DNA of 64,000 bases, taken from sequence record MK373774.1; one strand, 5' to 3'. This document shows positions 2,152 to 40,360 of this stretch, one piece after another. The notes beneath the pieces are model-generated. The model did no database searches. It had not been told where the DNA came from and worked only from the letters and a program-made list of their open reading frames with translations. This stretch comes from Escherichia phage vB_EcoM_WFL6982. The translations under genes were made by a program, and so were the position numbers. How positions within the stretch are numbered: position 1 is the first letter of the stretch; each line of letters begins with the position of its first letter.

Positions 2152-2179
2152 TAACTATAATTCCCATTCGGAGAATACA

Positions 2180-5056: not shown

Positions 5057-5086
5057 ATAATGTAATCTAAACCACAGGACACTAAA

Positions 5087-5899: not shown

Positions 5900-5916
5900 T
5901 TTAAAGGTTAACACAA

Positions 5917-7485: not shown

Positions 7486-7512
7486 TGCTTTAACGTTAAA
7501 ATACATAACCTT

Positions 7513-7539
7513 ATGGGAGACTTCGGTCTCCCATTTTTG
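7513..7539 (+). terminator. Rho-independent terminator after gene 23 (atgggagac-ttcg-gtctcccat + T-run)
   Basis: Perfect 9-bp stem with UUCG loop followed by TTTTT. Confidence 0.75.
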
Positions 7540-7542
7540 GTT

Positions 7543-7812
7543 TTATTTCTGTGCAATTTCGATGTAAGTTTTCAAAATATTTTGCCAATTAGGCATACCT
7601 TCTTGGGCATATGCCGGAGAACCATCTTTGTTTTTGAATGATGCAAGTTTATCAGTGGCCCAATAACCTTTAGCTCGAGCTTCAGAATCAACTTTCATCC
7701 ATACTTTGTTGAAGGCATTACCATTAACTTTTGCACCATATTTTTCTACTAACTTAACTGCTTCAGCTTCCAGAACTTTTAAAGTATCTCGTAAGAAACG
7801 TGCTTTAGTCAT
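7543..7812 (-). CDS. Hypothetical early protein (89 aa) antisense between genes 23 and 24
   Basis: ORF preceded by GTTTAC-type early promoter and Shine-Dalgarno GAGGAG; occupies the locus where T4 has segD but has no endonuclease motifs. Confidence 0.55.
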   Translation of the reverse strand: MTKARFLRDTLKVLEAEAVKLVEKYGAKVNGNAFNKVWMKVDSEARAKGYWATDKLASFKNKDGSPAYAQEGMPNWQNILKTYIEIAQK

Positions 7813-7837
7813 TTTGTTTACTCCTCTGTAGTTGATA

Positions 7838-7875
7838 AGTCTATAGTATCACATACCAAATACGTTGTAAACAAT
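7838..7875 (-). promoter_or_regulatory. T4 early promoter (-35 TTTACA, 17 nt, -10 TACTAT)
   Basis: Minus-strand reading gtttacaacgtatttggtatgtgatactat. Confidence 0.5.
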
Positions 7876-7878
7876 CTT

Positions 7879-7886
7879 TATAAATA
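7879..7886 (+). promoter_or_regulatory. Late promoter TATAAATA (gene 24)
   Basis: Exact TATAAATA 28 nt upstream of gene 24. Confidence 0.6.
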
Positions 7887-7913
7887 ATCTATATCACATA
7901 AGGAAAAAATGCA

Positions 7914-9197
7914 ATGAGTAAAATCCAAAAATTATTGCGTGAATCTACAACGTCTACTAGCAACTCAATTGGTCGCCCAAATCTCGTTGCTTTGACTCGC
8001 GCTACGACTAAATTAATATATTCTGACATTGTAGCAACACAAAGAACTAATCAACCTGTTGCTGCTTTTTATGGTATCAAATATCTTAACCCAGATAACG
8101 AATTCACATTTAAAACTGGCGCTACTTATGCTGGTGAAGCTGGATACGTAGACCGAGAAAAAATTACTGAGCTCACAGAAGAATCAAAAGTCACACTAAA
8201 TAAAGGCGATTTTTTCAAATATAATAATATCGTCTATAAAGTGTTAGAAGATACACCATTTGCAGATATTCAAGAAAGTGATCTAGAATTAGCTCTTCAG
8301 ATTGCAGTCGTTCATTTAAAGGTACGGTTATTTTCAGATGCAGCGGTAACAAGCAAATTTGAAAGCTCTGATAGCGAAATTTCTGATGCAAGATTCCAGA
8401 TTAATAAATGGCAAACTTCAGTCAAATCTCGTAAACTTAAAACTGGTCTCACGGTTGAATTAGCGCAAGATTTGGAAGCGAATGGATTTGATGCCCCTAA
8501 CTTCTTAGAAGATTTGCTTGCTACTGAAATGGCAGATGAAATTAATAAAGATATTCTTCAGTCTTTAATTACTGTATCGAAACGTTATAAAGTTACTGGA
8601 ATTACTGACACCGGATTTATTGACTTGAGCTATGCATCCGCTCCAGAAGCAGGTCGTTCGTTATATCGAATGGTGTGTGAAATGGTATCACACATCCAAA
8701 AAGAGACAACTTATACTGCAACGTTTTGTGTAGCCTCAGCTCGTGCAGCTGCTATTCTTGCTGCTTCCGGTTGGTTAAAACATAAGCCAGAAGATGACAA
8801 GTATCTTTCACAAAATGCTTATGGATTCTTGGCAAATGGATTACCTCTTTACTGCGATACCAACAGCCCGTTAGATTATGTTATTGTGGGTGTTGTAGAA
8901 AATCTCGGCGAAAAAGAAATTGTAGGGTCCATCTTTTATGCTCCATACACTGAAGGAGTGGATTTAGATGACCCGGAACATGTCGGTGCATTTAAAGTTG
9001 TAGTTGATCCGGAAAGCTTGCAACCGTCTATTGGATTATTGGTTAGATATGCTTTATCAGCAAATCCTTACACAGTAGCAAAAGATGAAAAAGAAGCGAG
9101 AGTAATTGATGGCGGGGACATGGATAAAATGGCGGGACGTTCAGACTTGTCTGTTTTACTCGGTGTTAAATTGCCTAAAATTATTATAGATGAATAA
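7914..9197 (+). CDS. 24: Capsid vertex protein gp24
   Basis: 427 aa, gp23 paralog, T4 length and position. Confidence 0.92.
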   Translation: MSKIQKLLRESTTSTSNSIGRPNLVALTRATTKLIYSDIVATQRTNQPVAAFYGIKYLNPDNEFTFKTGATYAGEAGYVDREKITELTEESKVTLNKGDFFKYNNIVYKVLEDTPFADIQESDLELALQIAVVHLKVRLFSDAAVTSKFESSDSEISDARFQINKWQTSVKSRKLKTGLTVELAQDLEANGFDAPNFLEDLLATEMADEINKDILQSLITVSKRYKVTGITDTGFIDLSYASAPEAGRSLYRMVCEMVSHIQKETTYTATFCVASARAAAILAASGWLKHKPEDDKYLSQNAYGFLANGLPLYCDTNSPLDYVIVGVVENLGEKEIVGSIFYAPYTEGVDLDDPEHVGAFKVVVDPESLQPSIGLLVRYALSANPYTVAKDEKEARVIDGGDMDKMAGRSDLSVLLGVKLPKIIIDE

Positions 9198-9208
9198 ACA
9201 AAAAAAAA

Positions 9209-9224
9209 GGGACCGTAAGGTCCC
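9209..9224. terminator. Bidirectional terminator hairpin gggacc-gtaa-ggtccc flanked by A-run and T-run
   Basis: Between convergent genes 24 (+) and rnlB (-). Confidence 0.7.
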
Positions 9225-9233
9225 TTTTTTTCG

Positions 9234-10232
9234 TTATGATACTAATTCAATCCATGCAGGACGCAGAACATCTTGCACCATTCGGACTAATTCTTTCTTA
9301 ACAAGATTCGGATTATCAGATGATGTTAATACAATACCTTCACGAGAAGTTTCTTCCAGAATATCTTGAACAGTCAATCCCATCACTTTGCCAAAAGATT
9401 TTGGCGTTACAGCCCCAATCTTAGAAATAACATTATTAACACGATTTAATGTAACATAACAAGCTAGAACATCAAGCAAGTTTTTGTCAATTTCGGTTAA
9501 TGGAACCTGAGTTTTAATAGGCTTATCAGACTTTTTCTTTTCACTGAATTTAGAGTTCTTGCACTTAATAGCTACACGAGTACCGTTTGGCAGCCATTTA
9601 GGGAAACAAGGCTTCAGAACATAACCTTCTGCCGTATTATCGCCAATAACATTAGCATCAAATACACAATTATTTGCTTCGACAAGGTCTTCTGACGCAG
9701 TAGCATTATAAGCGGCTAAGACGGAATCAAGGTCATTTGGAATCATGATAAGAGAATCAAATGTTCCACGACCAAGCATTGGTGCCATTTTAAAACCGAA
9801 TTCATTACAGAAATCTTGCATTTCGTAATCGGTCAAATACGTATTATCACCACTTTCTGTATTGATAAGGATATCGAACACATAAAAATCTTTTTCACCG
9901 TAGTCAACACCTTTCTGGATTCCACCACCAGCAAATTCACCGAATACTTGATATGATACGGCTCGAGCTGTGTACATGAATTCCTGAACGGCTTTAATAG
10001 CTTTATCATACTTCTTGAGTACGATTTCATAACCATAAAAATCTTCTGCTGGAAGAATAGGGCCTGTGCGCTTGGCGCATGTGACGTTGCCACGTTCAAT
10101 TATTAACGAGAAGTTGGTCCCATGGATTTTCTCACGTGCTACCCAAACACCAGTAGTCAAACCATTAGTGTAGAGTTTTTCAATAAACTTAGAGTTGTAG
10201 TGGTTTTCAAGACTGCTGTATTTCTTAAACAT
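9234..10232 (-). CDS. rnlB: RNA ligase 2 (Rnl2)
   Basis: 332 aa; nucleotidyltransferase lysine motif KIHGTN near N-terminus; T4 synteny. Confidence 0.9.
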
Positions 10233-10319
10233 AAATCACCATTATAAATAATAATATCAAAATAATTAGCAGAGACTCTATCTCTGACCGGATGTTTAAT
10301 TTGAATGGATAGAACCTAG

Positions 10320-10352
10320 ATTCATTATACCATCAAAAAATGTAAAGCATAC
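10320..10352 (-). promoter_or_regulatory. Middle promoter (MotA box TGCTTTA + TATAAT)
   Basis: Minus-strand reading tatgctttacattttttgatggtataatg upstream of rnlB. Confidence 0.45.
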
Positions 10353-10603
10353 TAGAACTTGATTTCTATCCAGTGCCCATCACGCTGGTCGTGATTAATT
10401 TTGTACTGAAAGCCGTTATCACGAAGCCATTGACCGACTTGTTCAGTTATAGTTAAATCGTTCTTTGACGGGTAGTACGTGAATTGTGTCTGGCCTTTAT
10501 CAGCGGCTTTCTCTGCTATCACAGAGAAGTTAGTAATAAAATCACTCAACAAATTAGCTTTAGCGGCCAGAGCCCTTTCTCTTAATTCCTGTGCAAAACT
10601 CAT
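10352..10603 (-). CDS. Hypothetical protein (24.2 position)
   Basis: 83 aa ORF, synteny between rnlB and hoc. Confidence 0.55.
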   Translation of the reverse strand: MSFAQELRERALAAKANLLSDFITNFSVIAEKAADKGQTQFTYYPSKNDLTITEQVGQWLRDNGFQYKINHDQRDGHWIEIKF

Positions 10604-10800
10604 TTCTTCACCTTTTTGTTAATCAAACGTTTACGGTATACAACTTTTTCTTTTGCTTTAAACTTTGACCGAGCTGTCTCGGCTTTAGTCCATAGTAATC
10701 CAACTTCTTTAGGTTGTAAACCAATTTTTTGAGCAATTTCTACGAATGAAAATCCCGCCTCATGTAATGTATAAACTTCAACTTCAGCTCTCATAATCAA
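10600..10800 (-). CDS. Hypothetical small basic protein, HTH-like (24.3 position)
   Basis: 66 aa; FSFVEIAQKIGLQPKEVGLLW resembles helix-turn-helix; overlaps next gene by 4 nt. Confidence 0.55.
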   Translation of the reverse strand: MIMRAEVEVYTLHEAGFSFVEIAQKIGLQPKEVGLLWTKAETARSKFKAKEKVVYRKRLINKKVKK

Positions 10801-10875
10801 TCCCGTATTATTTGGTTTGTGCCATTATATACATCAATCTCAAGATGTGTTTTGTATGCTTTAAAAACGAAGAAA

Positions 10876-10889
10876 GGGGCCGAAGCCCC
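10876..10889 (-). terminator. Hairpin ggggc-cgaa-gcccc after hoc
   Basis: Stem-loop followed by T-run on minus strand. Confidence 0.55.
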
Positions 10890-10893
10890 TTGA

Positions 10894-11388
10894 TTATGGA
10901 TATGTATAGATGATACCAGTTTCCAAAGCAGTTTTATGGATGATGTATCCATTACGTGATTCTTGAACATCAACTTCTGGATAGTCTTTCATCATCTTCT
11001 GAAGCGTATAACGATGCAAGTAATACTTACTATCTGGATCTTCAGTTTTCCAATCTTTACCTTCTTCAGTCATTTTTTGGATTTCATCCATAACCCACCA
11101 ACCGCACCAGATGTAAGCTGAAGTACGATGTGGAAGAGGATGAACATAAGGTAATTCACCTTCTGGAACTGTATTTGTTGCAACTACTTTAATAGTCTTT
11201 TGACCGGCAGGTCCTTTTAGTACATAACTAAAAGTTGCTTCAGCTCCATCTTGCGGAACATCATCTACAGACCAAGCATATGTAATAGTTCCACCTCCAG
11301 TTTCACCACCGGGAGTAGCAGTAAACTGCTTAGTCTCATCTATAACTCCAGTAGGTGTTTTAGGAGTTATATCAACTGTAAAAGCCAT
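10894..11388 (-). CDS. hoc: Hoc-like outer capsid protein, short form (one Ig-like domain + capsid-binding domain)
   Basis: 164 aa; N-terminus MAFTVDITPKTPTGVIDETKQFTATP and C-terminus YIWCGWWVMDEIQKMTEEGKDW...IIYTYP match T4 Hoc termini as recalled. Confidence 0.8.
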   Translation of the reverse strand: MAFTVDITPKTPTGVIDETKQFTATPGGETGGGTITYAWSVDDVPQDGAEATFSYVLKGPAGQKTIKVVATNTVPEGELPYVHPLPHRTSAYIWCGWWVMDEIQKMTEEGKDWKTEDPDSKYYLHRYTLQKMMKDYPEVDVQESRNGYIIHKTALETGIIYTYP

Positions 11389-11397
11389 AAGTTATCC

Positions 11398-12066
11398 TTA
11401 TTTTAATGTTACGAAAGAAGAATTACGAGTTTCACGAATTAGAACTGATCCATCGCGATTAATATAATAAATTAAGCTAAATAATGTTTGGTGAGCAGAA
11501 GCGTGCACAAAACTGGTTGGGCGAGATTTCCAATCTGGGGTTTCGGCTATCCATTGATAAATCCACCAAGGAACAGTAACATATCCTGGGCCTTTGCCTA
11601 ATTTAATGAGTGTAGGACTAAAATTTTCAGGCAGAACAAATTTTACTTCTTTATTTACCTCTGGATCAGGCTCTTTTTCAGATTCAACAACCTGAGTAAT
11701 TGCTTCTTCGAATTTATCATGGTCGAATTCTTTTTCTTGTTCGACAACTTCTAATACTTCAACTTGTTCTGTTGGAGAATCAAACAACAGAATAGCTTCT
11801 TCTTTAACTTCTTCGTTGGTGAAATTAACACCGTCCACATCATCTGCGGCAGTAATTAAATCGGTGATAGATAATCCATCGGTTTCAGGTAATGGTTCAT
11901 CAGCCAGTGCGTTAAGAGCTTCTTCGATATCAATAACAATATTATCGAATGATTTTGTTTTCTTAACACTAATGCCAAATTGTTTCGCATATTCGAACAG
12001 TTTAGCTTTGGCTTCCTTTTTATCAGAAAGAGCACGTAACTCTTCAATATAGTCTTTATCGATCAT
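11398..12066 (-). CDS. inh: Inhibitor of prohead protease Inh
   Basis: 222 aa; position after hoc as in T4. Confidence 0.75.
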   Translation of the reverse strand: MIDKDYIEELRALSDKKEAKAKLFEYAKQFGISVKKTKSFDNIVIDIEEALNALADEPLPETDGLSITDLITAADDVDGVNFTNEEVKEEAILLFDSPTEQVEVLEVVEQEKEFDHDKFEEAITQVVESEKEPDPEVNKEVKFVLPENFSPTLIKLGKGPGYVTVPWWIYQWIAETPDWKSRPTSFVHASAHQTLFSLIYYINRDGSVLIRETRNSSFVTLK

Positions 12067-12079
12067 GGTATTTCCTCAT

Positions 12080-12087
12080 TATAAATA
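12080..12087 (+). promoter_or_regulatory. Late promoter TATAAATA (uvsW)
   Basis: Exact TATAAATA 30 nt upstream of uvsW. Confidence 0.55.
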
Positions 12088-29591: not shown

Positions 29592-29960
29592 TTATGCAAC
29601 TTTAATCCAATTGTCTAAATTTAAAACACCTTTGGCTTTCATTTTTTCTATCAGGTTATCTGCTGTAATGCGTCCATTTTGATACCATGTAACATCTTCA
29701 GAGTAACCAGTTTCTTCGTCAACATATGTTTCTGAACGAATTTTACCGGTAATAATAGTTTTTAATTCGTATGTGTCACCTGTGAAAAAGTTTGCTAACA
29801 CAATTTTCCAAGAGAAATCATCAGAAGGACCTTCAGGGGTCATACAACCTACGAACTCAAATTGCTCTTTGTATAACATCCACTGGAATTCTTTAATTTC
29901 GATAGCTTTATAACCATCGTGGTCTTTACATTTGATGTATGAGTTCAGATTGATTTTCAT
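29592..29960 (-). CDS. Hypothetical protein (30.8/30.9 region)
   Basis: 122 aa ORF preceded by early promoter. Confidence 0.55.
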   Translation of the reverse strand: MKINLNSYIKCKDHDGYKAIEIKEFQWMLYKEQFEFVGCMTPEGPSDDFSWKIVLANFFTGDTYELKTIITGKIRSETYVDEETGYSEDVTWYQNGRITADNLIEKMKAKGVLNLDNWIKVA

Positions 29961-29999
29961 TTTGTTCTCCAGGTTGTTTTATTGATTAGATGGTACAAG

Positions 30000-30033
30000 T
30001 CTATAGTAACACATCCTACAGGAGAGTAAACAT
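30000..30033 (-). promoter_or_regulatory. Early promoter with spacer inverted repeat
   Basis: Minus strand gtttactctcctgtaggatgtgttactatag. Confidence 0.5.
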
Positions 30034-30067
30034 CTTTTTAAACTTTTTCTGCCCTAAACGCACAAAA

Positions 30068-30085
30068 GGGAGACCGAAGTCTCCC
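30068..30085 (-). terminator. Terminator hairpin gggagac-cgaa-gtctccc + T-run (minus)
   Basis: Immediately downstream of 59-aa basic ORF stop. Confidence 0.6.
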
Positions 30086-30090
30086 TAAAA

Positions 30091-30270
30091 TTATGCAACA
30101 ACCTTTCCAAAACGAGAAGCATCATCTCGAAGAACTGCACGTGCTCTGCGCATGATCTTCTCAACTGTTTGATTAATACGAGAGTTCGACCCACGCTTGT
30201 ATCCAGCGCGTTTAGAGGTACCATCAACTTTCTTTTCAACTGCTTTCTTTGCTTTAGCTTGTTTTGCCAT
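30091..30270 (-). CDS. Hypothetical small Lys/Arg-rich protein (59 aa), not in ORF track
   Basis: Manual translation MAKQAKAKKAVEKKVDGTSKRAGYKRGSNSRINQTVEKIMRRARAVLRDDASRFGKVVA; ATG to TAA; terminator follows. Confidence 0.5.
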   Translation of the reverse strand: MAKQAKAKKAVEKKVDGTSKRAGYKRGSNSRINQTVEKIMRRARAVLRDDASRFGKVVA

Positions 30271-30565
30271 TATAAATTCTCTTTAAATGAAAATGCAGGA
30301 CTTATTGACATTGCCTGCGCAAGCCCTCAAGGGGAACATAGGTTTTGGATATTTAACGACAGGATAACCATAAACCCGTCATCATACCAACCACGACTTA
30401 GACAGATAACCTTTTTCTGACGCGTGATAGTACAAAATACATTCAAGAGGTACACCGTAAAACTGCCGGGGCCTTAAAACTATAATGATTCGCAAATCAT
30501 TAATCAGACAGTTCGACGGCTCCTCGATTTTCTAGCCGCACTTAAGGTAGCGAATCACCTAAAAC

Positions 30566-30930: not shown

Positions 30931-30938
30931 TATTTATA
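30931..30938 (-). promoter_or_regulatory. Late promoter TATAAATA (minus strand) upstream of rIII
   Basis: Plus-strand tatttata just after gene 31 stop. Confidence 0.4.
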
Positions 30939-31271
30939 TCACTTATAAAGACACGGAATAGCTTTATAGTGGCATGTTACGAATTTCTGTTTAATTTCTT
31001 TAGGTTGTTTAAGTCCCAAAGCCACAAATGGATGTGGAACATTTCGAATTTGTCCAACTGGTAGTGGAGTCAAATCACCGACTTCAACAAAACCTTCAGG
31101 AACATCAGGACCTACAGAATGAACTACACATAGTTCAGGAACTTCACCTTGAACACGTTTACCAATCACAAGTCCTGATTCGGTAACTTCTTCATCACCT
31201 GCTTGAGCGGGTTCAGAAACCAGAATGACATATTCACCAACAGCACGAATTGGGAGTTGTACTTCAGACAT
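30939..31271 (-). CDS. 31: Co-chaperonin for GroEL (gp31)
   Basis: 110 aa; [34 protein letters not shown] matches T4 gp31. Confidence 0.92.
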
Positions 31272-31289
31272 CTTATTTCCTTGTTGTTT

Positions 31290-31328
31290 GACGATAGATT
31301 AATAATACCATACTATTCGTAAAGCATA
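31290..31328 (-). promoter_or_regulatory. Middle promoter (MotA box TGCTTTA) upstream of gene 31
   Basis: Minus strand tatgctttacgaatagtatggtattatta. Confidence 0.45.
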
Positions 31329-31637
31329 TTACATAAGAAGCAAACGTTCTACCGGAGTACCATCAACCGAAATTACTTTATCAAGGCGGAAAGAACGCCA
31401 CTGACCTAACTTGGTATCGAATGCTCGAACTGATTCACGAGGTTCAGAACGAACTTCTGATGCCGGATTGTTATTTTCATATTTGACTTCAAGTTCATCG
31501 CGAGAAGCAAACATAGTGCGTACCTCACCGTTAGCCTTTTCAAATACAACACAATGAACGCCTACAGACAGAATAGTTTTAATACGTTCACGAAGAACCA
31601 TAGTTTCTTGTTCAGTTAAAATCATATTATTCACCAC
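31329..31637 (-). CDS. Hypothetical protein (31.1 position)
   Basis: 102 aa ORF between cd and gene 31. Confidence 0.55.
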   Translation of the reverse strand: MVNNMILTEQETMVLRERIKTILSVGVHCVVFEKANGEVRTMFASRDELEVKYENNNPASEVRSEPRESVRAFDTKLGQWRSFRLDKVISVDGTPVERLLLM

Positions 31638-32208
31638 AAAAGTTTCGGATTTGTTCCCAATTCAGAGAACGAAGATTATTACGAGAGTACTGAATTACTT
31701 CAATACCGGCTTGTTTTAGAATGTCTGCCCAATTTTCAGGAGATCGGTCGTATAATTCTGCATATACAACCTTTTTAATACCTGACTGTGTAATAGCTTT
31801 AGTGCAATCAGGACACGGAGAAAGCGTCGTATATAACGTAGCACCTTCAATAGAATTACCTTTACGAGCTGCAAATAAAATTGCATTCAGTTCAGCATGG
31901 ATTTCATTATTAGCAGACCATGCACTATGAGCGGCCCGATGTTCTTTAGCCAAAACAAAATTATCCACCCGTCCAAATGCTGTAGTGCCTTCTTTATGCC
32001 CAGCAACGATGACCGGGCTTGGTTTATTCTTCAACCAACCGTTTTCGGATGCATGTTCGCAACAGTTTGTACCACCTGAAGGAGAGCCATTATAACCTGT
32101 AGAAATAATGCGTCCATCTTTTTCAATGACGGCGCCAACTTTCCATGAACAACATTTTGATTCTTGAGAAATCAGATATGCAATCTGAAGGTATGTGCTA
32201 GCTTTCAT
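31627..32208 (-). CDS. cd: dCMP deaminase
   Basis: 193 aa; zinc-binding deaminase motifs HAE...PCxxC. Confidence 0.92.
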   Translation of the reverse strand: MKASTYLQIAYLISQESKCCSWKVGAVIEKDGRIISTGYNGSPSGGTNCCEHASENGWLKNKPSPVIVAGHKEGTTAFGRVDNFVLAKEHRAAHSAWSANNEIHAELNAILFAARKGNSIEGATLYTTLSPCPDCTKAITQSGIKKVVYAELYDRSPENWADILKQAGIEVIQYSRNNLRSLNWEQIRNFCGE

Positions 32209-33200
32209 TATTGAACCTTATTAATATAAGTTAACAGCTCTTTAGTTTGTTCCCAACTGATGCACGCATCGGTAACGGAAACGCCATAGGACATATTATC
32301 AGAAATTTTTTGATTTCCTTCATGTAGGAACGATTCTATCATAATTCCTTTGACCAAATCATTAGCTGCTAAATTTTTACCAATACCAATTTGATTGCTA
32401 TAATGCCCATCAGCGTTTGCATGGCTACAGTCAACCATTACATAATGATTCAGACCTACTGCCCTTGCTTTGTTAGAAGCTTCTTGAATATCAGAAGAAT
32501 GATAGTTCGGGCCGTTGGTCCCGCCACGCAATACGATATGCGTATTCTGATTACCTTCAGCTTCAACAATGCCTACAGTACCATCGACGTCCATACCCAT
32601 ATACCGATGAGGCCAGGCGGCACTATACATCGCGTCTATAGCTACTTTAATAGAACCATTGGTTGCGTTCTTGAAGCCTACGCACATCGGTAGACCTGAA
32701 GCAATTTCACGATGTGTCTGACTTTCAGTCGTACGGGCGCCAATAGCAACCCATGAGAAAATACCAGAAAGATACTTAATCGTGAATGGGTCTAATACTT
32801 CAGTTGCTAATGGAAGTCCCATACGTAGAAGTTTACGACACAATGTTCGTGCAACTATAAGACCGTGGTTCATATCAAAACTTCCGTCAAGATATGGATC
32901 ATTTACAAGACCTTTCCAACCTACGGTAGTTCGAGGCTTTTCAAAATAAACGCGCATCACTAACAGAACATTAGGAAGACGAGTTTGAAGTTCAGCCAGA
33001 CGTTTGCCGTATTCAACAGCAGCAATAGGGTCATGAATTGAACAAGGACCTACAACGATAAGTTTGCGTGGGTCTTCACCATTCATAATCGAATTAACTT
33101 GTTCGCGATGAGAAGCCACTTGTGATGCGTAAGCTTCCGACAAAGGAATAATCTCAGCCAGTTCTTTTGGAGAAATAAGTTTTCCGACGACAGGTAACAT
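32208..33200 (-). CDS. 3-deoxy-D-arabino-heptulosonate-7-phosphate (DAHP) synthase, class I-alpha (AroG/AroF-like)
   Basis: 330 aa; motif blocks LIVVGPCSIHD, MRVYFEKPRTTVGWKGL, AIGARTTESQTHRE, VMVDCSHANA, IMIESFLHEGNQ, VSVTDACISWE; AGGA RBS; 1-nt coupling to cd. Confidence 0.9.
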   Translation of the reverse strand: MLPVVGKLISPKELAEIIPLSEAYASQVASHREQVNSIMNGEDPRKLIVVGPCSIHDPIAAVEYGKRLAELQTRLPNVLLVMRVYFEKPRTTVGWKGLVNDPYLDGSFDMNHGLIVARTLCRKLLRMGLPLATEVLDPFTIKYLSGIFSWVAIGARTTESQTHREIASGLPMCVGFKNATNGSIKVAIDAMYSAAWPHRYMGMDVDGTVGIVEAEGNQNTHIVLRGGTNGPNYHSSDIQEASNKARAVGLNHYVMVDCSHANADGHYSNQIGIGKNLAANDLVKGIMIESFLHEGNQKISDNMSYGVSVTDACISWEQTKELLTYINKVQ

Positions 33201-33208
33201 AACAATCC

Positions 33209-33334
33209 TTAGGAGATATAAACAGATTCTGATTCAACAATACCTTTAACCGGATTAGACAGGCTAAGTTGGTAGTGCTCAGATTTATGACCATTCTCGA
33301 TAGTAATGAGATAGCTCTCATTATAGTGTTCCAT
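33209..33334 (-). CDS. Hypothetical small protein (start uncertain)
   Basis: ORF-track 33209..33397 overlaps upstream gene; shortened to internal Met. Confidence 0.3.
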   Translation of the reverse strand: MEHYNESYLITIENGHKSEHYQLSLSNPVKGIVESESVYIS

Positions 33335-33557
33335 ATACTCGAGTTGCTTCAACAAGACCATCACTGCATAATTTAAGATTAGTAATTTGGTCACCATCTT
33401 TAGGATTAACGATTATGAGAAAAGAACGTGGAGATTCTTGAATAACTCGTAATGTTGCATCTTGGAAACGTTCAGACACTTTATTGATGAGTGCTTGAGC
33501 AAATTCTTTTACTTTAATCTGAAATTCGTGTACTGTAATTGGGTTTTCACTTAGCAT
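33321..33557 (-). CDS. Hypothetical early protein (cd-pseT ORFan cluster)
   Basis: 78 aa; preceded by early promoter and conserved leader ccaacaaatgaggaaa. Confidence 0.5.
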   Translation of the reverse strand: MLSENPITVHEFQIKVKEFAQALINKVSERFQDATLRVIQESPRSFLIIVNPKDGDQITNLKLCSDGLVEATRVYGTL

Positions 33558-33582
33558 TTCTATTTCCTCATTTGTTGGTAGA

Positions 33583-33616
33583 GTTATAGTATCACAACTC
33601 CACCATGTTGTAAACC
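33583..33616 (-). promoter_or_regulatory. Early promoter with spacer inverted repeat
   Basis: Minus strand gtttacaacatggtggagttgtgatactat. Confidence 0.5.
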
Positions 33617-33617
33617 A

Positions 33618-33893
33618 TTAAATTGCTTTGCATTCAATTTTTTGTGTACCGAAATTGATATCACATTGGATAACTAAATCGCCGTCAAGATCAAATACCA
33701 CGATGACGTGTGCAGACCCAGGGAGAAGAGTAATAGCAATAGAATCTACTTGGTCTGGGAGCAAAGCATTGAGTACATGAGTTACTTGAGCATGAACTCT
33801 GAGTTCGGCTGCATTATCAAGCACTTCAAACATATTATTAGCAATAATCTGACTGAAGACTACCTTTACAATTTCAGAATAAGTTGGGAACAT
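33618..33893 (-). CDS. Hypothetical protein (cd-pseT ORFan cluster)
   Basis: 91 aa ORF. Confidence 0.5.
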   Translation of the reverse strand: MFPTYSEIVKVVFSQIIANNMFEVLDNAAELRVHAQVTHVLNALLPDQVDSIAITLLPGSAHVIVVFDLDGDLVIQCDINFGTQKIECKAI

Positions 33894-33900
33894 AATTACC

Positions 33901-34125
33901 TCAGTGCACAGTATTTACTTTAACTCGAACAACAAATCGCTCGGTTGGTTCACCTACAGGAACAAACTCTACATGATATTCACCTTTGTAACGAGTATTC
34001 AGATCATTACGAATTCCTGCGAGTTTGTTGATTAATGTAGGACTCATATTAAGTCCCACTAGTTTACGAAGCATTTTGTATGCTTCATCTTCGATTTCAT
34101 GATGTTTATCGTACATAGTTTTCAT
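33901..34125 (-). CDS. Hypothetical protein (cd-pseT ORFan cluster)
   Basis: 74 aa ORF. Confidence 0.5.
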   Translation of the reverse strand: MKTMYDKHHEIEDEAYKMLRKLVGLNMSPTLINKLAGIRNDLNTRYKGEYHVEFVPVGEPTERFVVRVKVNTVH

Positions 34126-34297
34126 TTAACCATTCAATTGCCTGGTCGACGTTATCAAATATACCGCCGTCCAAACGTTCTTCATGCTCATAGTCCAGCA
34201 CATCAATACCGAACTGTCCATTTACTAAAGGCCAGGCAACAAACAAATATTCTTTATGCTGTTCGATGGCCTCAATCACTTCATATAATCGTTTCAT
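34106..34297 (-). CDS. Hypothetical acidic protein (cd-pseT ORFan cluster)
   Basis: 63 aa ORF coupled to pseT stop. Confidence 0.45.
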   Translation of the reverse strand: MKRLYEVIEAIEQHKEYLFVAWPLVNGQFGIDVLDYEHEERLDGGIFDNVDQAIEWLNENYVR

Positions 34298-35384
<1,087 letters not shown>

Positions 35385-35385
<1 letters not shown>

Positions 35386-35684
35386 TATTTGATTCCTAAG
35401 AAAGCTTCAAGAATACGAATGTTGAGTTCGCGCCGGTCTTTATTAATTTCAGCAACGTTTTTATTAATTGACGTACTTCTAACGTTTGAAGAAATAAATT
35501 TAATCATATGACTTTTGAGTTGTTGCAAATCCAACCCTTTTTCTTTAGCAGCTTTACGAAGAGCTTTACCTGCTTCATCTAGTGCCTTTGCTGCATCTTT
35601 GTCATAATCTACAAGTGTCATTCCACGGCAGATATCAATATACTCATCAGACCGTTTGATGTAATTCTCTAGTAATGTTTTCAT
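35385..35684 (-). CDS. Hypothetical protein
   Basis: 99 aa ORF preceded by early promoter. Confidence 0.5.
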
Positions 35685-35709
35685 TTAGATTTCCTCAATT
35701 ATCCATAGG

Positions 35710-35743
35710 AGCATTATACTCTGCTCCCGAGAGTTTGTAAACT
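35710..35743 (-). promoter_or_regulatory. Early promoter (-35 TTTACA, 17 nt, -10 TATAAT)
   Basis: Minus strand gtttacaaactctcgggagcagagtataat. Confidence 0.55.
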
Positions 35744-35966
35744 ATTTTACTAAAGATTCAATATACTCATGAAGAGCTTTAGTCGCTACTGCCCACTTAT
35801 TCTGATATTCATTTTTCAGATTAGCACGAGACTGAACTAACAAGCGGTCATTAGTCGGAGGCAAAGATTCTAATCGTTGAATCTGGCGTCCATAAATCAT
35901 AGCCGCCATTTCAGATTCATAGATAAGCCCTTTAATGTATTCATGCTGTTCTTTAGTCATTGGCAT
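35742..35966 (-). CDS. Hypothetical protein
   Basis: 74 aa ORF. Confidence 0.5.
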   Translation of the reverse strand: MPMTKEQHEYIKGLIYESEMAAMIYGRQIQRLESLPPTNDRLLVQSRANLKNEYQNKWAVATKALHEYIESLVK

Positions 35967-36247
35967 TTTTCCTCTTTTAAACCACTACGATAATAACATA
36001 ACATAGTCTTCTGGTCATGTATATATCTTTTTACGTCGTTTAACCAGATACGAAATTCTTGAGAGTCTTCAAATGGCATTCCAACCCACGGATTACCATC
36101 AATAACCTTTACTTGCCATTTCTGGTTGTATTCGGAAATAGGCGTAGGCCATGAAGGATGTAAAGTTTCTTTAGGGCTTACTGGCACATCCTGAGTACAT
36201 CCAACTAGGAGACCAATAGATAATACAGCCACAGTTAATTTAATCAT
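35957..36247 (-). CDS. Outer-membrane spanin lipoprotein (Rz1-like o-spanin)
   Basis: 96 aa; signal peptide plus lipobox LLVGC; adjacent to i-spanin; corresponds to T4 pseT.2 position. Confidence 0.7.
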   Translation of the reverse strand: MIKLTVAVLSIGLLVGCTQDVPVSPKETLHPSWPTPISEYNQKWQVKVIDGNPWVGMPFEDSQEFRIWLNDVKRYIHDQKTMLCYYRSGLKEEKCQ

Positions 36248-36600
36248 TCTGAGAGCTTCCTGAGGTCTTCTGCAAAGGAATCGAAGGACCTGTTGATTTG
36301 TTTTTCGACCAATCCTGGCTTACTTGCCACCACGTTCTTCTTCTTCGAATCCTTACGGAGCTTTTCATTTTCAGCCTTAAGTTGGTCAACTAAAACACGG
36401 TTCTTATAAGTCATTTCTTCGATTGACTGATATTGAATCTTGAAGTCGTCTAATACTTTAGCATTGTTTTTAGCAGTCTCTTTAACAGAAGCCAATTCAG
36501 TATTCAGCGAATCGACTTTATGGTTCAGAAATGCTATTGTTACAGTAGCAACAACTGCAAAAGCTGCCACTACAATATATGATGCATTTACTTTAAGCAT
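36244..36600 (-). CDS. Inner-membrane spanin (Rz-like i-spanin)
   Basis: 118 aa; N-terminal TMD YIVVAAFAVVATVTIAFL, then coiled-coil-like region; corresponds to T4 pseT.3 position. Confidence 0.7.
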   Translation of the reverse strand: MLKVNASYIVVAAFAVVATVTIAFLNHKVDSLNTELASVKETAKNNAKVLDDFKIQYQSIEEMTYKNRVLVDQLKAENEKLRKDSKKKNVVASKPGLVEKQINRSFDSFAEDLRKLSE

Positions 36601-37088
36601 GTTTGAATAATCTCAATGATTTCGTCTCGGGATAATCCATTGATAAGAACTGTTTTAGGCCCGTCAGTTTGGATTTTGTATGATTCAAACAATACACACA
36701 ACTCTTCTGCTGTATGATATGGGCTTGAGATTCCGAGACGGTTGAATTTGTCGGTAAGAGGGTCGCAAATAATATAGAATTTGATACCTGCGATATGTAC
36801 GTTTGGTTGACTAATATTAATGAACACATTAGCGTCATATTTAGTCAAATTGTTTTGAAGAAATTCTACCATAGAATTAACTGCTTCTGGCATCGCTTCG
36901 CGTTTCTCTTCAGCGTATCGGGTTGAATACTCTTTTTGTTTTACTTTCTTTTTAAGATTTTTGGCCAGTGTAACACGTAGGTCAGTAAGATAACCAACTG
37001 GACGTCCTTTCTTAAAGACCCGGATTCCGTCAGTTGTGTCTCCAAAAGCGTTTACGACCATATCGTTAGTAATCAATTGCATATTCAT
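36588..37088 (-). CDS. alc: Alc (inhibitor of host transcription on dC-DNA), by position and size
   Basis: 166 aa from internal ATG with GAGGAG RBS; ORF-track extension covers promoter/leader. Confidence 0.7.
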   Translation of the reverse strand: MNMQLITNDMVVNAFGDTTDGIRVFKKGRPVGYLTDLRVTLAKNLKKKVKQKEYSTRYAEEKREAMPEAVNSMVEFLQNNLTKYDANVFINISQPNVHIAGIKFYIICDPLTDKFNRLGISSPYHTAEELCVLFESYKIQTDGPKTVLINGLSRDEIIEIIQTCLK

Positions 37089-37114
37089 AATTTTCTCCTC
37101 GTGTTGTTGATAAA

Positions 37115-37148
37115 CCCATAGTATCACCATCCTTGGTGTTTGTAAACC
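37115..37148 (-). promoter_or_regulatory. Early promoter with spacer inverted repeat
   Basis: Minus strand gtttacaaacaccaaggatggtgatactatgg. Confidence 0.5.
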
Positions 37149-37149
37149 G

Positions 37150-38283
<1,134 letters not shown>

Positions 38284-38297
38284 TCAGTTAGTTTTTT

Positions 38298-38331
38298 TAA
38301 ATTGTACCACAATCCTTGTGGTATGTAAACT
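38298..38331 (-). promoter_or_regulatory. Early promoter (TTTACA ... TACAAT) with 8-bp spacer palindrome
   Basis: Minus strand gtttacataccacaaggattgtggtacaat. Confidence 0.5.
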
Positions 38332-38740
38332 ACTTTTTCTTATGTTGGATATTCCAAGGCGGGTTGAACTTTTTGATAAAAAGTGGTTCTTCAAGGTCCA
38401 TTGTTGCGATGGTCATTGAACCAAGTTCGTTGGTGACTGAAAGGTCAAAACATTGGCGGGCCCAGAATTCAACCTTTTTGCCTTGCATTAAGGCATCCAA
38501 AATCATAAGTGATTTTCTTGAATCTGAAGTCTGGTCTTTTCGATTTATGGCTGTTCGATAATAGTTAATGCGTTTCTTTAAATTCTTGGTTTTACCAATA
38601 TACACGAGTTCGTCATCTATAGCAATAGCATATATGACATTTTTCTTATTAGGGACATCAACTGTTTTAATTGTTGCATCTTCTAATAGCTCCAATTCTG
38701 TATATTTAATAAAGGAATATTCGGCGGCGATATCTTTCAT
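38330..38740 (-). CDS. denA: Endonuclease II (GIY-YIG family)
   Basis: 136 aa; VIYAIAIDDELVYIGKTKNLKKRINYYR GIY-YIG-type motif. Confidence 0.85.
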   Translation of the reverse strand: MKDIAAEYSFIKYTELELLEDATIKTVDVPNKKNVIYAIAIDDELVYIGKTKNLKKRINYYRTAINRKDQTSDSRKSLMILDALMQGKKVEFWARQCFDLSVTNELGSMTIATMDLEEPLFIKKFNPPWNIQHKKK

Positions 38741-38748
38741 AATAAAGT

Positions 38749-38762
38749 GGGACCGAAGTCCC
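38749..38762 (-). terminator. Hairpin gggacc-gaa-gtccc after nrdB
   Basis: Stem-loop just downstream of nrdB exon 2 stop. Confidence 0.5.
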
Positions 38763-38766
38763 GTCC

Positions 38767-39269
38767 TTAGAAATATTTTTTGTATGAATTGATTACATTT
38801 TGGTCTACATCATTATCAATTTGTGCGACAAGATAAGAACTGATTTCAACTTCCTGAGGAGCTGCTTGAACTAAATCAGAGTTCAGATATTCACGAATCC
38901 AAGGATACGGATGCTTGGTCGGAGCATCCGTAATTGGACATGGCAAACCACACTGTTTCATACGAGACACAGTCAAGTAATCAACAAAAGCACACATACT
39001 CTGCGTATTGATACCTGGACATGTACCATCTTTAAAGAGGTGTGCAGCCCATTCCTTCTCTTGACTATTTACTTCCATAAAAATGTCAACTGCTTCTTGT
39101 TCACATTCTTTAGCAATTTGAACCCACTCATCACCGTCAGTACCAGATTGAAGTTGACGGATAATGTACTGAGTACCCTTGAGATGGAGTTGTTCGTCAC
39201 GAGCAATGAACTTCATAATCTTTGCATTGCCTTCCATAATTTCCATATTCTTGTGGAAGTTAAAGGTAC
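38767..39269 (-). CDS. nrdB: Ribonucleotide reductase small subunit NrdB, exon 2
   Basis: Frame continues TFNFHKNMEIMEGNAKI...; joined to exon 1 gives FYVSFA-C-TFNFHKN, colinear with E. coli R2 FYVSFACSFAFAERELMEG. Confidence 0.85.
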
Positions 39270-40360
39270 CGTTATGTTCGATTGAGCTCGCTAATTCTCA
39301 ACCCGTTCTCTTATGAACTGCTACATATTACTATGCAGACCAGACTATATCACAATCCCAGAGGGATTCTCCCCATTTCGAGTCGCTTGACCCTACGTCC
39401 GAAGACTAGTCGTTGAACCTTGCTTTGCAATTGTCGCCGTGCCATCGTTTATATGTTGATGGTGATAAATCTTTCTTATCACAATATGGACAATTCAATT
39501 GAATTCTATTTGGATTTAATTTACATCTGTCATTATGTTTTAGATAAAATCCAGGACCTTTACCAATGTGACCACAAAAATCACACGTGATTTCTTTTTG
39601 TGCAGGATGGGTCCCGTTCTTAACCATTTCTAATGTTTTTGCTGATGTTCTTTTCTTATGGTCTTCTGATAAGAAATGATGTGAACCGTCATTTACCCGT
39701 TTTGATTGAGTTTCTGACTGCATTTTACCACCGCAAAATACATGAGTACCTTCTTTTATAGCTGCAATATTGCGTTCTTTAACTTTTGCAATATGCTCAG
39801 CTTGTTGAAAATTATGTATACCTAATGCAACTCTATTTAAATTAGATTTACGCTGTATTTCACCGTCTAAAAGATGAAATGTACCATTTTCTATCTTAGA
39901 TTTAATAGAGGCAATATTTTTAGCTCGTACTTCAGGGATATTAAAAATCTGGATTTCTCTAGATTTTGCGGCTTTAGAAGCTAATTCAGAAATTTCTTCA
40001 GGAGAATATTTCATTCTAAGCTTTATAGCATGACAAGCCTGGTAATCTTTTTGAGCTAAATGTATATCATAATGTTCCTGTATAGAAAGGCACATCAAAT
40101 TATCTAAATCATTATTTTCACGGTTACCGTCTTTATGATGGATTTCATATGTTCTTCCATCAGAATCTTTAGGTATAGGTCCGTTAGCATCTATCCAAAT
40201 TTTTCTATAGTTCAATTGTGCATCCTCTTAAAAGTATAATCATATTTATATTATACTAATTAAAGGTGCAAGCAAAACCTTGGCTGCTAGTTTTCCTATA
40301 AAGGACTTTCCAGCAATTAAAGGAGTTTTCGATAAACGTTACCGTTTAAAGGCGCATTTT
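39270..40360 (-). mobile_element. Group I self-splicing intron in nrdB (about 1091 nt) carrying HNH endonuclease ORF
   Basis: Interrupts nrdB; 3' core cgtagggtcaagcgactcgaaa and 3' end gaacataacG resemble T4 td intron P7-P9 and terminal G; 5' exon ends in U. Confidence 0.8.
39406..40215 (-). CDS. I-TevIII: Intron-encoded HNH homing endonuclease (I-TevIII-like, full length)
   Basis: 269 aa; HNH motif EIHHKDGNRENNDLDNLMCLSIQEH; C-terminal Cys-rich zinc-finger-like region; inside nrdB intron. Confidence 0.85.
   Translation of the reverse strand: MNYRKIWIDANGPIPKDSDGRTYEIHHKDGNRENNDLDNLMCLSIQEHYDIHLAQKDYQACHAIKLRMKYSPEEISELASKAAKSREIQIFNIPEVRAKNIASIKSKIENGTFHLLDGEIQRKSNLNRVALGIHNFQQAEHIAKVKERNIAAIKEGTHVFCGGKMQSETQSKRVNDGSHHFLSEDHKKRTSAKTLEMVKNGTHPAQKEITCDFCGHIGKGPGFYLKHNDRCKLNPNRIQLNCPYCDKKDLSPSTYKRWHGDNCKARFND

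Follow-up and report, generated by a model that had tools for sequence, protein, structure and literature searches.

The described proteins closest to the enzyme considered here are the E. coli DAHP synthase (DAHPS) AroF (6AGM/6AGL), which has the paralogs AroG and AroH, the engineered feedback-resistant alleles of AroG and AroF, and the phage proteins of PHROG 5045. In the window, by which is meant the whole 64,000-nt stretch of Escherichia phage vB_EcoM_WFL6982 (MK373774.1) that was analysed, a DAHPS gene encoded a protein that was alignable with AroF over the full length, shared its fold (TM 0.95 to class I-alpha structures), and was identical in the metal ligands, the KPRT motif, and the PEP residues; it also had the beta6a/beta6b hairpin and, at the position of AroG 211, the Tyr-type Gly. 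It differed from AroF in being 20 to 26 residues shorter, with the first approximately 9 N-terminal residues absent, and in carrying P150I, Q151K, D155G, S180P, F209Y, and T223A (AroG numbering). The alterations included positions 150, 151, 180, and 209, at which changes in laboratory alleles abolish or weaken inhibition (PMC9529685); such alleles are exemplified by AroG P150L, S180F, and D146N and by aroF-fbr. The expected consequence is alike, namely that carbon enters the shikimate pathway without regulation, which for the window protein is a prediction. Unlike these alleles, the window protein is natural, combines several changes with an N-terminal truncation, and has I, K, P, and Y instead of L and F, its insensitivity being predicted.

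The window protein was a direct member of PHROG 5045 (E=1.9e-182), with no substantive difference from the phage DAHPS therein. Phage auxiliary metabolic genes, of which cyanophage transaldolase and CP12 are examples, follow the same concept of a single host-derived enzyme that acts at a control point and is expressed in infection, but the cyanophage-type genes serve another pathway, and the role of DAHPS in infection is a predicted one. In a paper on the Kanagawavirus KLB31, phage DAHPS was treated as an auxiliary metabolic gene (PMC11845039). The host-type enzyme resided in bona fide phage genomes, where it was conserved and selected (212 records, five genera, dN/dS 0.15-0.21).

A class I-alpha DAHP synthase with complete catalytic residues in the pseT-cd block

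The ORFs of the window indicated that the pseT-cd block of this RB69-like E. coli phage (Mosigvirus) carried a DAHP synthase gene, with the following features.

32208-33200, minus strand: DAHP synthase coding sequence, class I-alpha, AroF-like (330-aa ORF with profile and structure matches)
33206-33210, minus strand: ribosome binding site AAGGA, with the ATG (33198-33200) 5 nt downstream, read from the sequence
31627-32208, minus strand: cd (dCMP deaminase), the start of which overlaps the DAHPS stop (TAATG)
34298-35197, minus strand: pseT (polynucleotide kinase/phosphatase), the upstream limit of the conserved pseT-cd interval

The first-pass annotation had described a class I-alpha DAHP synthase with a good ribosome binding site, a stop overlapping the cd start, and cd and the small ORFs between cd and pseT as neighbours. 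All of this was borne out: AAGGA was suitably placed ahead of the ATG, the stop TAA (32208-32210) and the cd start ATG (32206-32208) had one base in common, and cd, cd.2/cd.3, and pseT were located as it had described. In-frame stops were observed 11 codons 5' of the DAHPS ATG with no start codon in between; thus, the short N-terminus is real.

PF00793 (Pfam) matched the window protein with E=6e-76 and 255 bits against a cut-off of 25.5, covering positions 8-269 of the 270 in the profile, and the four NCBIfam matches were all to DAHPS models, with TIGR00034 aroFGH (NCBIfam) at 430.6 bits (cut-off 173.2). The protein passed PRK12755, the AroF-type subfamily model (456 vs 343), and fell under the cut-offs of the AroH model (389 vs 463) and the AroG equivalog (365 vs 568). 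E. coli AroF 6AGM matched residues 8-327 with E=1e-105, and by these best matches the protein appears to be closest to AroF. In KDO8P synthases, a KANRS-type motif stands in place of KPRT. When the protein was checked against AroF/AroG/AroH and KdsA models, the DAHPS models matched and no KdsA model did, and KPRT was invariant; a KDO8P synthase or other non-DAHPS enzyme was therefore ruled out.

The six DAHPS motif blocks claimed at first pass were all found, at residues 47, 82, 152, 254, 286, and 307, as were the four metal ligands (C53, H260, E289, and D311) and the PEP-binding Arg/Lys set (R83, R156, K177, and R225); the E4P motif was K88-P89-R90-T91 (KPRT). The 10 PEP/E4P-binding residues and the 4 metal ligands were invariant in 25 of 25 phage-clade sequences. 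The AF2 model was a (beta/alpha)8 barrel (pLDDT 91.3, pTM 0.91) that Foldseek matched to the N. meningitidis and E. coli DAH7PS with TM 0.95 and rmsd 1.6 Å, and it kept the beta6a/beta6b hairpin as strands 198-203 and 209-214, which align to the AroG 207-223 region. Phage DAHPS was under purifying selection (dN/dS 0.15-0.21), which together with the invariant active site argues for retained catalysis, and the window protein is predicted with high confidence to be an active DAHP synthase.

Distribution and origin of the insert

The DAHPS gene was present in 212 phage records, in most of which it was correctly annotated. In many records of Mosigvirus, proteins with 99.7% identity bore the name phospho-2-dehydro-3-deoxyheptonate aldolase, and the WFK record carried the entry "hypothetical protein". 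The prospect, raised at first pass, that the gene might prove real but not novel in T4-like phages was largely confirmed, the gene being already known as an annotation in these records and in PHROG 5045, but it did not extend to experimental characterization: a literature search for an experimental study of phage DAHPS found none and one annotation-level mention (PMC11845039). A survey of the cd-pseT locus in T4-like phages showed DAHPS to be syntenic between pseT and cd in five genera, Mosigvirus, Kanagawavirus, Marfavirus, Winklervirus, and Bragavirus; the gene was missing from T4, in agreement with the first-pass statement that it is not part of the canonical T4 set. In a phylogeny with phage homologs, the phage sequences formed a monophyletic clade, which has diverged to 56% identity internally.

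The best cellular matches of the window protein were at approximately 53% identity, with none above 55% to bacterial proteins, and were spread over many phyla, and the NJ grouping of the phage clade with enterobacterial AroF had a bootstrap of 13/200; the comparison thus pointed to no particular bacterial donor. GC3 (0.299 vs 0.285±0.056) and phage-referenced CAI (0.651 vs 0.671±0.052) were near the window values, and thus the gene matches its neighbours at synonymous sites, but its overall GC of 0.413 exceeded the mean of 0.378 for the window and ranked 55th among the 58 ORFs. The first-pass description of the gene as AT-rich like its neighbours holds at synonymous sites. The possibility that the gene had recently been captured from E. 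coli, the host, was rejected, since identity was 51% to AroF, 47% to AroG, and 43% to AroH, and GC3 (0.30 vs 0.50-0.57) and CAI (0.65 vs 0.45-0.50) both differed. Because bacterial identity did not exceed 55% and GC3 and CAI were phage-like, the gene is old in phages and no recent host pick-up. Long residence, as proposed at first pass, applies to the pool of T4-like phages but does not extend to Mosigvirus, in which DAHPS is an accessory 1.1-kb insert; in RB69 and mar005P1, cd.2 directly abuts cd and DAHPS is absent.

The features at the borders of the insert and upstream of it were as follows.

33321-33557, minus strand: resident cd.2 (DUF7320), directly upstream of the insert
33209-33316, minus strand: 3'-end relic of a foreign cd.2, SYLITIENGHKSEHYQLSLSNPVKGIVESESVYIS followed by a stop, recognized by a DUF7320 match and local alignment
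33312-33324, minus strand: upstream junction of the insert, with the left copy, ATAATGAGAGCTA, of an imperfect direct repeat of 13 nt (cd.2 stop and duplicated cd start)
32199-32211, minus strand: downstream junction of the insert, with the right copy, ATAATGAAAGCTA, of this repeat (DAHPS stop and true cd start)
33586-33614, minus strand: sigma-70-like promoter candidate nearest to DAHPS on the upstream side, TTTACA-17-TACTAT with TG, upstream of cd.2, a consensus match only

Pfam DUF7320 matched the ORF at 33209-33397, which overlaps the relic, with E=2e-06, and in local alignment the relic scored 62-73 to the Kanagawavirus/Marfavirus cd.2 C-termini vs 30 to the cd.2 of the window itself. This relic of another phage's cd.2 came in with DAHPS and is now only the leader and ribosome binding site region. 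Judging from the TAATG overlap, DAHPS and cd are likely co-transcribed and translationally coupled. No late-promoter TATAAATA was found on the minus strand between 30938 and 40243, and no dedicated DAHPS promoter in the 110-nt leader. As a sigma-70-like scan of the region gave 17 matches vs 18.8 in shuffles, only a candidate, the one upstream of cd.2, was assigned. A tRNA scan of the window found none.

The aromatic amino-acid inhibitor site in two phage lineages

What this analysis adds is the rewritten feedback "off switch", which the first-pass annotation had missed. When 98 cellular and 25 phage enzymes were compared over 314 aligned core positions (AroG numbering), only 6 positions were fixed differently in the two groups, and all of them lay within the inhibitor site for aromatic amino acids or next to it. 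These were P150 (I141 in the window protein; P in 91 of 98 cellular and I in 24 of 25 phage enzymes), Q151 (K142; Q in 98/98 cellular, K/R in 25/25 phage), D155 (G146; D in 95/98 cellular, G in 24/25 phage), S180 (P171; S/T in 98/98 cellular, P in 25/25 phage), F209 (Y200; F in 97/98 cellular, Y in 25/25 phage), and T223 (A214; T in 98/98 cellular, A in 25/25 phage). A review describes the AroG variants P150L and S180F as feedback-resistant and names Q151/Q152 and S180/S181 as residues in contact with the inhibitor (PMC9529685). Four of the six diagnostic positions were among the 10 feedback-resistance or contact positions named there (P=7.7e-6), and five were among 11 when D155 was counted (P=1.1e-7).

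The N-terminal segment bearing AroG D6/D7 was missing in all 25 phage sequences, which had at most 52 residues before the metal Cys vs at least 58 in the 98 cellular enzymes. In the AroG-Phe structure, D6/D7 provide inhibitor contacts to the partner subunit, and N-terminal engineering for feedback resistance was reportedly carried out by Zhang et al. in 2014. A literature lookup of AroF N8K found nothing. As far as can be judged from sequence comparison, phage DAHPS has probably lost feedback inhibition.

An ordinary regulated isozyme of the AroF type, that is, one more Tyr-sensitive DAHPS in which the pocket changes are lineage noise, would agree with the best matches to PRK12755 and E. coli AroF 6AGM and with the retention in the phage enzyme of the hairpin, of L179 and V221 in the hydrophobic pocket, and, at the position of AroG 211, of a Gly as found in Tyr-regulated enzymes. 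We nevertheless consider it unlikely, because the Q151 and S180 contacts present in 98/98 cellular enzymes were replaced in 25/25 phage enzymes, P150, where the P150L change abolishes inhibition, was altered, no N-terminal contact segment was present, and the differences clustered in the pocket (P about 1e-5 to 1e-7) and recurred in an independent phage clade.

This second clade consisted of the DAHPS of Aeromonas phage HJ05 together with three relatives from metagenomes. All catalytic residues looked at were intact in it, and the changes were P150A, Q151H/S, D155P, S180P, and F209V, at positions where the 117 nearest cellular homologs had near-invariant P, Q, D/E, S, and F. The HJ05 enzyme shared 38% identity with the window protein, to which 212 of 212 cellular homologs scored closer than it did; it is an independent acquisition. 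Both are phage-borne class I-alpha enzymes with an intact active site and five common allosteric positions altered, but the HJ05 protein has 387 aa and a long N-terminus, and its phage is 79 kb and not T4-like. DAHPS matches labelled "Acinetobacter phage MD-2021a" had normal pocket residues and cobS neighbours and were set aside as bacterial DNA. The DAHPS of a gut "Bacteriophage sp." contig, MT837410, was also without Q151 and S180; its phage origin is putative and it was left out of the evidence.

Within the T4-like phage clade, the pocket had a mean entropy of 0.51 vs 0.95 for random position sets, 143 of 10,000 sets being as low, which is consistent with a site that retains some function, be it as dimer-interface structure or for another ligand, and a carboxylate could still be bound by the Lys that replaces Q151. 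Given a convergent rewriting in at least two phage lineages and a pocket that is fixed in the T4-like one, the site might have been re-wired for a new phage-relevant effector, not merely de-regulated, the remodelled pocket binding an aromatic keto-acid, chorismate/prephenate, a nucleotide, or a phage protein. The fixation of I141, K142, G146, P171, Y200, and A214 across a clade at 56% identity, with the pocket over-conserved, and the change in charge (D6/D7 and D155 lost, K142 gained) point in this direction, the latter suggesting an altered type of ligand instead of decay. However, HJ05 changed the same positions to H/S, P, V, and A, with S180P as the only common change, and the lack of a common new chemistry fits loss better than a common new ligand; moreover, the conservation is also explicable by the place of the pocket at the dimer interface. 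Re-wiring is thus a doubtful reading of the pocket.

Predicted role during infection

The best explanation, in which we have moderate confidence, is that the gene encodes an active, feedback-insensitive DAHPS that would feed the shikimate enzymes of the host. Expressed with the prereplicative pseT-cd.2-cd block, and probably coupled to the translation of dCMP deaminase, this class I-alpha enzyme is predicted to convert erythrose-4-P and PEP to DAHP; with its aromatic amino-acid inhibitor site apparently dismantled, it may be nature's counterpart of the feedback-resistant aroG/aroF alleles of metabolic engineering. The portions of one related genome's annotation that were examined contained no further gene assigned to the shikimate pathway, so that DAHPS would have to feed the remaining six enzymes of the host. 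Carbon would continue to flow into this pathway once host transcription has ceased, Phe/Tyr/Trp levels notwithstanding, and aromatic amino acids and/or chorismate-derived cofactors (folate, quinones) would be sustained as the presumed products. When shikimate flux is to be increased, the standard approach is to overexpress a feedback-resistant DAHPS (PMC11802643, PMC11206799). Against this explanation, RB69, mar005P1, and T4 manage without the gene.

Alternatively, DAHPS might act as a carbon-flux valve, draining E4P and PEP and reshaping pentose-phosphate flux toward pentoses for nucleotides and, in Mosigvirus, toward the arabinose of arabinosyl-hmC DNA. The location of the gene among nucleotide-metabolism genes, next to cd, is in keeping with such a role, as is the presence in Mosigvirus genomes of arabinose-5-P isomerase and phosphoheptose isomerase, Mosigvirus DNA being arabinosylated (PMC6024577, PMC8594841). 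Co-occurrence of DAHPS and arabinose-5-P isomerase was, however, only partial: both were present in Mosigvirus, Kanagawavirus, Winklervirus, EcS1, and Erwinia phages, but Klebsiella phages had 25 records with DAHPS and at most 3 with the isomerase, Acinetobacter phages had 57 records with the isomerase and none with T4-type DAHPS, and RB69 and mar005P1 had the isomerase and lacked DAHPS. Being partial both ways, this distribution leaves an obligate coupling of DAHPS with the arabinosyl-hmC sugar genes unsupported, and the DAHPS gene went unmentioned in the papers on RB69 arabinosylation and on BASEL (PMC6024577, PMC8594841). Diversion of E4P would also waste carbon that transaldolase would turn into pentoses, and a flux valve is accordingly quite improbable. 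A changed substrate or non-catalytic role (KDO8P-type activity with arabinose-5-P, a moonlighting structural function, or anti-defence), an idea prompted by arabinose-5-P isomerase in the same genomes with nothing direct in its favour, is extremely improbable, as KPRT and the metal ligands were invariant, no KDO8P model matched, and dN/dS and active-site invariance favour retained catalysis.

The gene call itself changes nothing, as databases already hold DAHPS. If the predicted feedback insensitivity is true, the phage enzymes would represent evolution-tested feedback-resistant DAHPS that are stable with several pocket changes and may provide templates for shikimate engineering. They would also offer a testable example, with two lineages converging, of phage metabolic genes that keep catalysis and shed host regulation, and the natural presence/absence pairs (WFK-type vs RB69/mar005P1, 1.1-kb insert) make the question of benefit to the phage experimentally easy.

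Gene, signals and existing annotation

The ORF for the 330-aa class I-alpha DAHP synthase (DAHPS) lay exactly where the first-pass annotation had placed it. All six motif blocks quoted there were present, and the good ribosome-binding site and the overlap with cd were both found, the stop codon of DAHPS and the cd start having one base in common (TAATG). In-frame stops 11 codons upstream of the ATG ruled out a longer N-terminus. The 4.2-kb stretch around the gene was 100% identical to that of Escherichia phage vB_EcoM_WFK (MK373775.1), and its close relatives are classed as Mosigvirus, the RB69-like T-even phages. The features of the locus were as follows.

32208..33200 (-): DAHPS CDS, ORF of 330 aa
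5 nt upstream of the DAHPS ATG (-): AAGGA ribosome-binding site, read from sequence
Neighbours: cd (dCMP deaminase), small ORFs cd.2 and cd.3 (DUF7320, DUF7355), pseT (polynucleotide kinase/phosphatase)
36574-36599, 34581-34605 and 31302-31326 (-): MotA-box-like middle-promoter matches, motif TGCTTNA-N10-14-TANNNT
33586-33614 (-), before cd.2: candidate sigma-70-like site, TTTACA-17-TACTAT

The late-promoter motif TATAAATA had no match on the minus strand from 30938 to 40243; window-wide, it occurred 18 times (7.5 expected), clustering on the plus strand at 868-12087, where the structural genes lie, gp23 (5917-7485) among them. T4-type middle-promoter-like motifs also numbered 18 in the window (6.4 expected), and sigma-70-like sites around DAHPS were no more frequent than in shuffled sequences. 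DAHPS probably shares a prereplicative transcript with cd.2 and cd. Inside the gene, a strong antisense sigma-70-like match at 32376-32404 (+) (TTTACC-17-TATAAT with TG, 10/12) was followed by a weak terminator-like hairpin at 32526-32543 (+); since such sites were not above shuffles overall, the match is probably due to chance.

Of 50,697 phage records searched by tblastn, 212 carried the DAHPS protein, 139 at ≥95% identity (Mosigvirus), 47 at 60-80% and 26 at <60%. Most records name it phospho-2-dehydro-3-deoxyheptonate aldolase, DAHP synthase, AroG or aroF, the WFK record labels it 'hypothetical protein', and phage DAHPS forms a family of its own, PHROG 5045 (E=1.9e-182), classed under 'moron, auxiliary metabolic gene and host takeover'. 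As a gene, DAHPS is already known: public phage annotations include and name it. The possibility raised at first pass, a real gene that is not novel, therefore largely holds, for annotation but not for experimental characterisation: full-text literature searches turned up no experimental work on any DAHP synthase of phage origin, and the sole mention, in a Klebsiella phage survey of 2025 (PMC11845039), was a paragraph at annotation level about a Kanagawavirus.

Identity of the enzyme and its allosteric site

The window protein matched Pfam PF00793 (E=6e-76) and exceeded the cut-offs of NCBIfam TIGR00034 (aroFGH; 430.6 bits, cut-off 173.2) and PRK12755 (456, cut-off 343), scoring below both the AroG and AroH equivalog cut-offs of NCBIfam. 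Its identities to E. coli AroF, AroG and AroH were 51%, 47% and 43%, about the distance among those three paralogs themselves, and the closest solved structure by sequence was that of the Tyr-sensitive isozyme AroF (6AGM; E=1e-105; residues 8-327 versus AroF 17-344). An AlphaFold model, for which 30 sequences were aligned, was confident (pLDDT 91.3, pTM 0.91), superposed on solved class I-alpha DAH7PS structures (TM 0.95, 1.6 Å) and kept the beta6a/beta6b hairpin. The metal ligands C53, H260, E289 and D311 and ten PEP/E4P-binding residues, KPRT included, were invariant in all 25 sequences examined from the phage clade to which the window protein belongs. A KDO8P synthase was rejected, as no model of that enzyme was among the NCBIfam matches, TIGR00034 and PRK12755 were passed and KPRT was invariant; within the limits of sequence evidence, the earlier claim of a catalytically competent DAHP synthase is supported.

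The 25 sequences of the phage clade were aligned with 98 homologs from cellular organisms, the three E. coli enzymes AroF, AroG and AroH among them. The first ~9 residues were missing from all phage copies (25/25), leaving at most 52 before the metal Cys versus at least 58 in cellular enzymes, and the missing segment aligned with AroG D6/D7, a stretch that in the AroG-Phe structure caps the inhibitor in the partner subunit. Among 314 core positions, screened without reference to function for one residue in ≥90% of cellular sequences and a different one in ≥92% of the phage clade, only six were diagnostic: P150I, Q151K, D155G, S180P, F209Y and T223A in AroG numbering (window-protein residues I141, K142, G146, P171, Y200 and A214). 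AroG P150L and S180F are feedback-resistant, F209A/S are resistant, Q151/Q152 and S180/S181 are inhibitor contacts, and a salt bridge of D155 stabilises the inhibitor site (PMC9529685). Four of the six positions were among the ten resistance/contact positions of that review (hypergeometric P=7.7e-6), or five among eleven when D155 was counted (P=1.1e-7). A broader list of 21 positions matched five of the six (P=4.7e-6); because it was drawn up after the alignment had been seen, the review-only test is the stricter. Mean entropy of the pocket within the phage clade was 0.51 versus 0.95 overall, and 143 of 10,000 random position sets were as conserved; the pocket is not decaying.

A second phage clade comprised Aeromonas phage HJ05 (79 kb, not T4-like) and three metagenomic relatives. 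The HJ05 enzyme (OQ594355.1, 3899-5062; 387 aa), annotated 'hypothetical protein' among neighbours that are all unannotated, has a long His- and Lys-rich N-terminus. This clade shared 38% identity with the window protein and at most 46% with any cellular enzyme; since all 212 cellular homologs scored closer to the window protein than the HJ05 clade did, the two clades are independent acquisitions. All ten catalytic residues checked were kept, together with P150A, Q151H/S, D155P, S180P and F209V, at which the 117 nearest cellular homologs had P in 107, Q in 105, D/E in 116, S in 109 and F in 110. The alignments thus give statistical support to a specific, convergent signature, by which phage copies would have lost or rewritten feedback control.

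Two further phage-labelled sequences were encountered. A very divergent DAHPS (36% identity) in the unverified gut 'Bacteriophage sp.' MT837410.1 (4746-5795) had a short N-terminus and G and D in place of Q151 and S180; these residues may reflect convergence or inheritance, and the sequence was left out of the evidence for convergence. That of 'Acinetobacter phage MD-2021a' (CAKLQH020000056.1, 140-1324), adjoining cobS and alpha-ribazole phosphatase genes, was rejected as a phage gene because all its regulatory residues were normal and of bacterial type; the contig looks like a piece of bacterial chromosome wrongly labelled as phage.

Origin and insertion history

A search of 5.8 billion proteins showed a sharp boundary between phage-associated sequences (319-343 aa, 55-98% identity to the window protein) and cellular enzymes of many phyla (341-388 aa, ≤55%). 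The 25-member phage clade was a bipartition in 200/200 neighbour-joining bootstraps and grouped with enterobacterial AroF in only 13/200. GC3 of the gene was 0.299 (window mean 0.285±0.056) and its phage-referenced CAI 0.651 (versus 0.671±0.052), the values for E. coli aroF/G/H being 0.50-0.57 and 0.45-0.50, respectively. Its synonymous sites are fully phage-like. The first-pass description of a gene as AT-rich as its neighbours was therefore correct for GC3 and CAI but not for overall GC, which was somewhat high (0.413, rank 55/58) because codon positions 1 and 2 are constrained. Together with a dN/dS of 0.15-0.21, the phage-like synonymous sites point to long residence in AT-rich phages under purifying selection. 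Atypical composition (GC3 0.53, phage-referenced CAI 0.47) was seen in a 203-aa ORF at 1556-2167 (-) lacking a Pfam match, most likely a spurious frame rather than a foreign gene, as it is antisense within the plus-strand late-gene region.

Five genera carry DAHPS between pseT and cd: Mosigvirus, Kanagawavirus (Entb_45, PEi26), Marfavirus (VAC36), Winklervirus (X20) and Bragavirus (phiP4-3). T4 lacks it, in keeping with the first-pass statement that it is not part of the canonical T4 gene set. In the Mosigvirus phages RB69 and mar005P1, cd.2 directly adjoins cd; DAHPS is accessory within Mosigvirus. Homology between WFK and mar005P1 broke off at window position 33312 and resumed at 32211, bounding an insert of ~1.1 kb with these features.

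33312-33324 (-): upstream copy of an imperfect 13-nt direct repeat flanking the insert, ATAATGAGAGCTA
32199-32211 (-): downstream copy of the repeat, ATAATGAAAGCTA
33209-33316 (-): putative cd.2 relic forming the DAHPS leader, from alignment to foreign cd.2 C-termini

This leader fills the ~110 nt that separate the resident cd.2 from DAHPS. One of its frames reads SYLITIENGHKSEHYQLSLSNPVKGIVESESVYIS*, with a weak Pfam DUF7320 match and alignment scores of 62-73 to the cd.2 C-termini of Kanagawavirus and Marfavirus versus only 30 to the resident cd.2. The Kanagawavirus cd.2 ends 9 nt upstream of the DAHPS start, the geometry of the leader relic. We infer that the Mosigvirus copy came from another T4-like phage, with one crossover in the donor's cd.2, at a short microhomology, and a second in cd, bringing along a now-defunct cd.2 3′-end as the source of the DAHPS ribosome-binding site. 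Relic leader and flanking repeat look like the recombination scar of a phage-to-phage cassette transfer. The long residence proposed at first pass therefore applies to the T4-like gene pool but not to Mosigvirus. Beside the insertion point, cd (31627-32208, -) is 193 aa in the window and mar005P1 but annotated as 169 aa in RB69 (6743-7252), which looks like either the choice of another start codon or a genuine difference at the N-terminus.

Possible role in infection

The best-supported reading of these sequences is an active DAHP synthase unresponsive to aromatic amino acids. The retained beta6a/beta6b hairpin and hydrophobic pocket, and the fixation of the remodelled pocket across the phage clade, leave room for binding of a new effector instead of simple deregulation. 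An obligate link to the arabinosyl-hmC sugar pathway was considered because both pathways draw on pentose-phosphate intermediates, and Mosigvirus genomes also encode arabinose-5-P isomerase and phosphoheptose isomerase, in a cluster that includes a large ORF, lies between uvsX and gene 43 (NC_025437.1 27840-30728) and is linked to arabinosyl-hmC DNA (PMC6024577, PMC8594841); it was not supported, co-occurrence being partial in both directions (Klebsiella phage records, 25 with DAHPS versus ≤3 with isomerase; Acinetobacter phage records, 57 with isomerase and no T4-type DAHPS; RB69 and mar005P1, isomerase only). The equivalent cluster in MK373775.1 lies around 29790-30422, outside the window.

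For a deregulated enzyme, the products that matter may be the aromatic amino acids themselves or cofactors made from chorismate, for example folate. Phe+Tyr+Trp made up 9.6% of window ORFs of ≥100 aa (Tyr 4.0%) versus ~8.2% of the E. coli proteome, weak support for aromatic supply and equally true of phages without DAHPS. Entry into the shikimate pathway is regulated at the DAHPS step. Expression of a feedback-resistant allele is the standard means of raising shikimate flux (PMC11802643, PMC11206799), and therefore a single phage gene could suffice to supply the host shikimate enzymes during infection without further phage genes. What goes beyond the existing annotation of phage DAHPS is the allosteric-site signature, which suggests that feedback control has been lost or rewritten in the phage copies.
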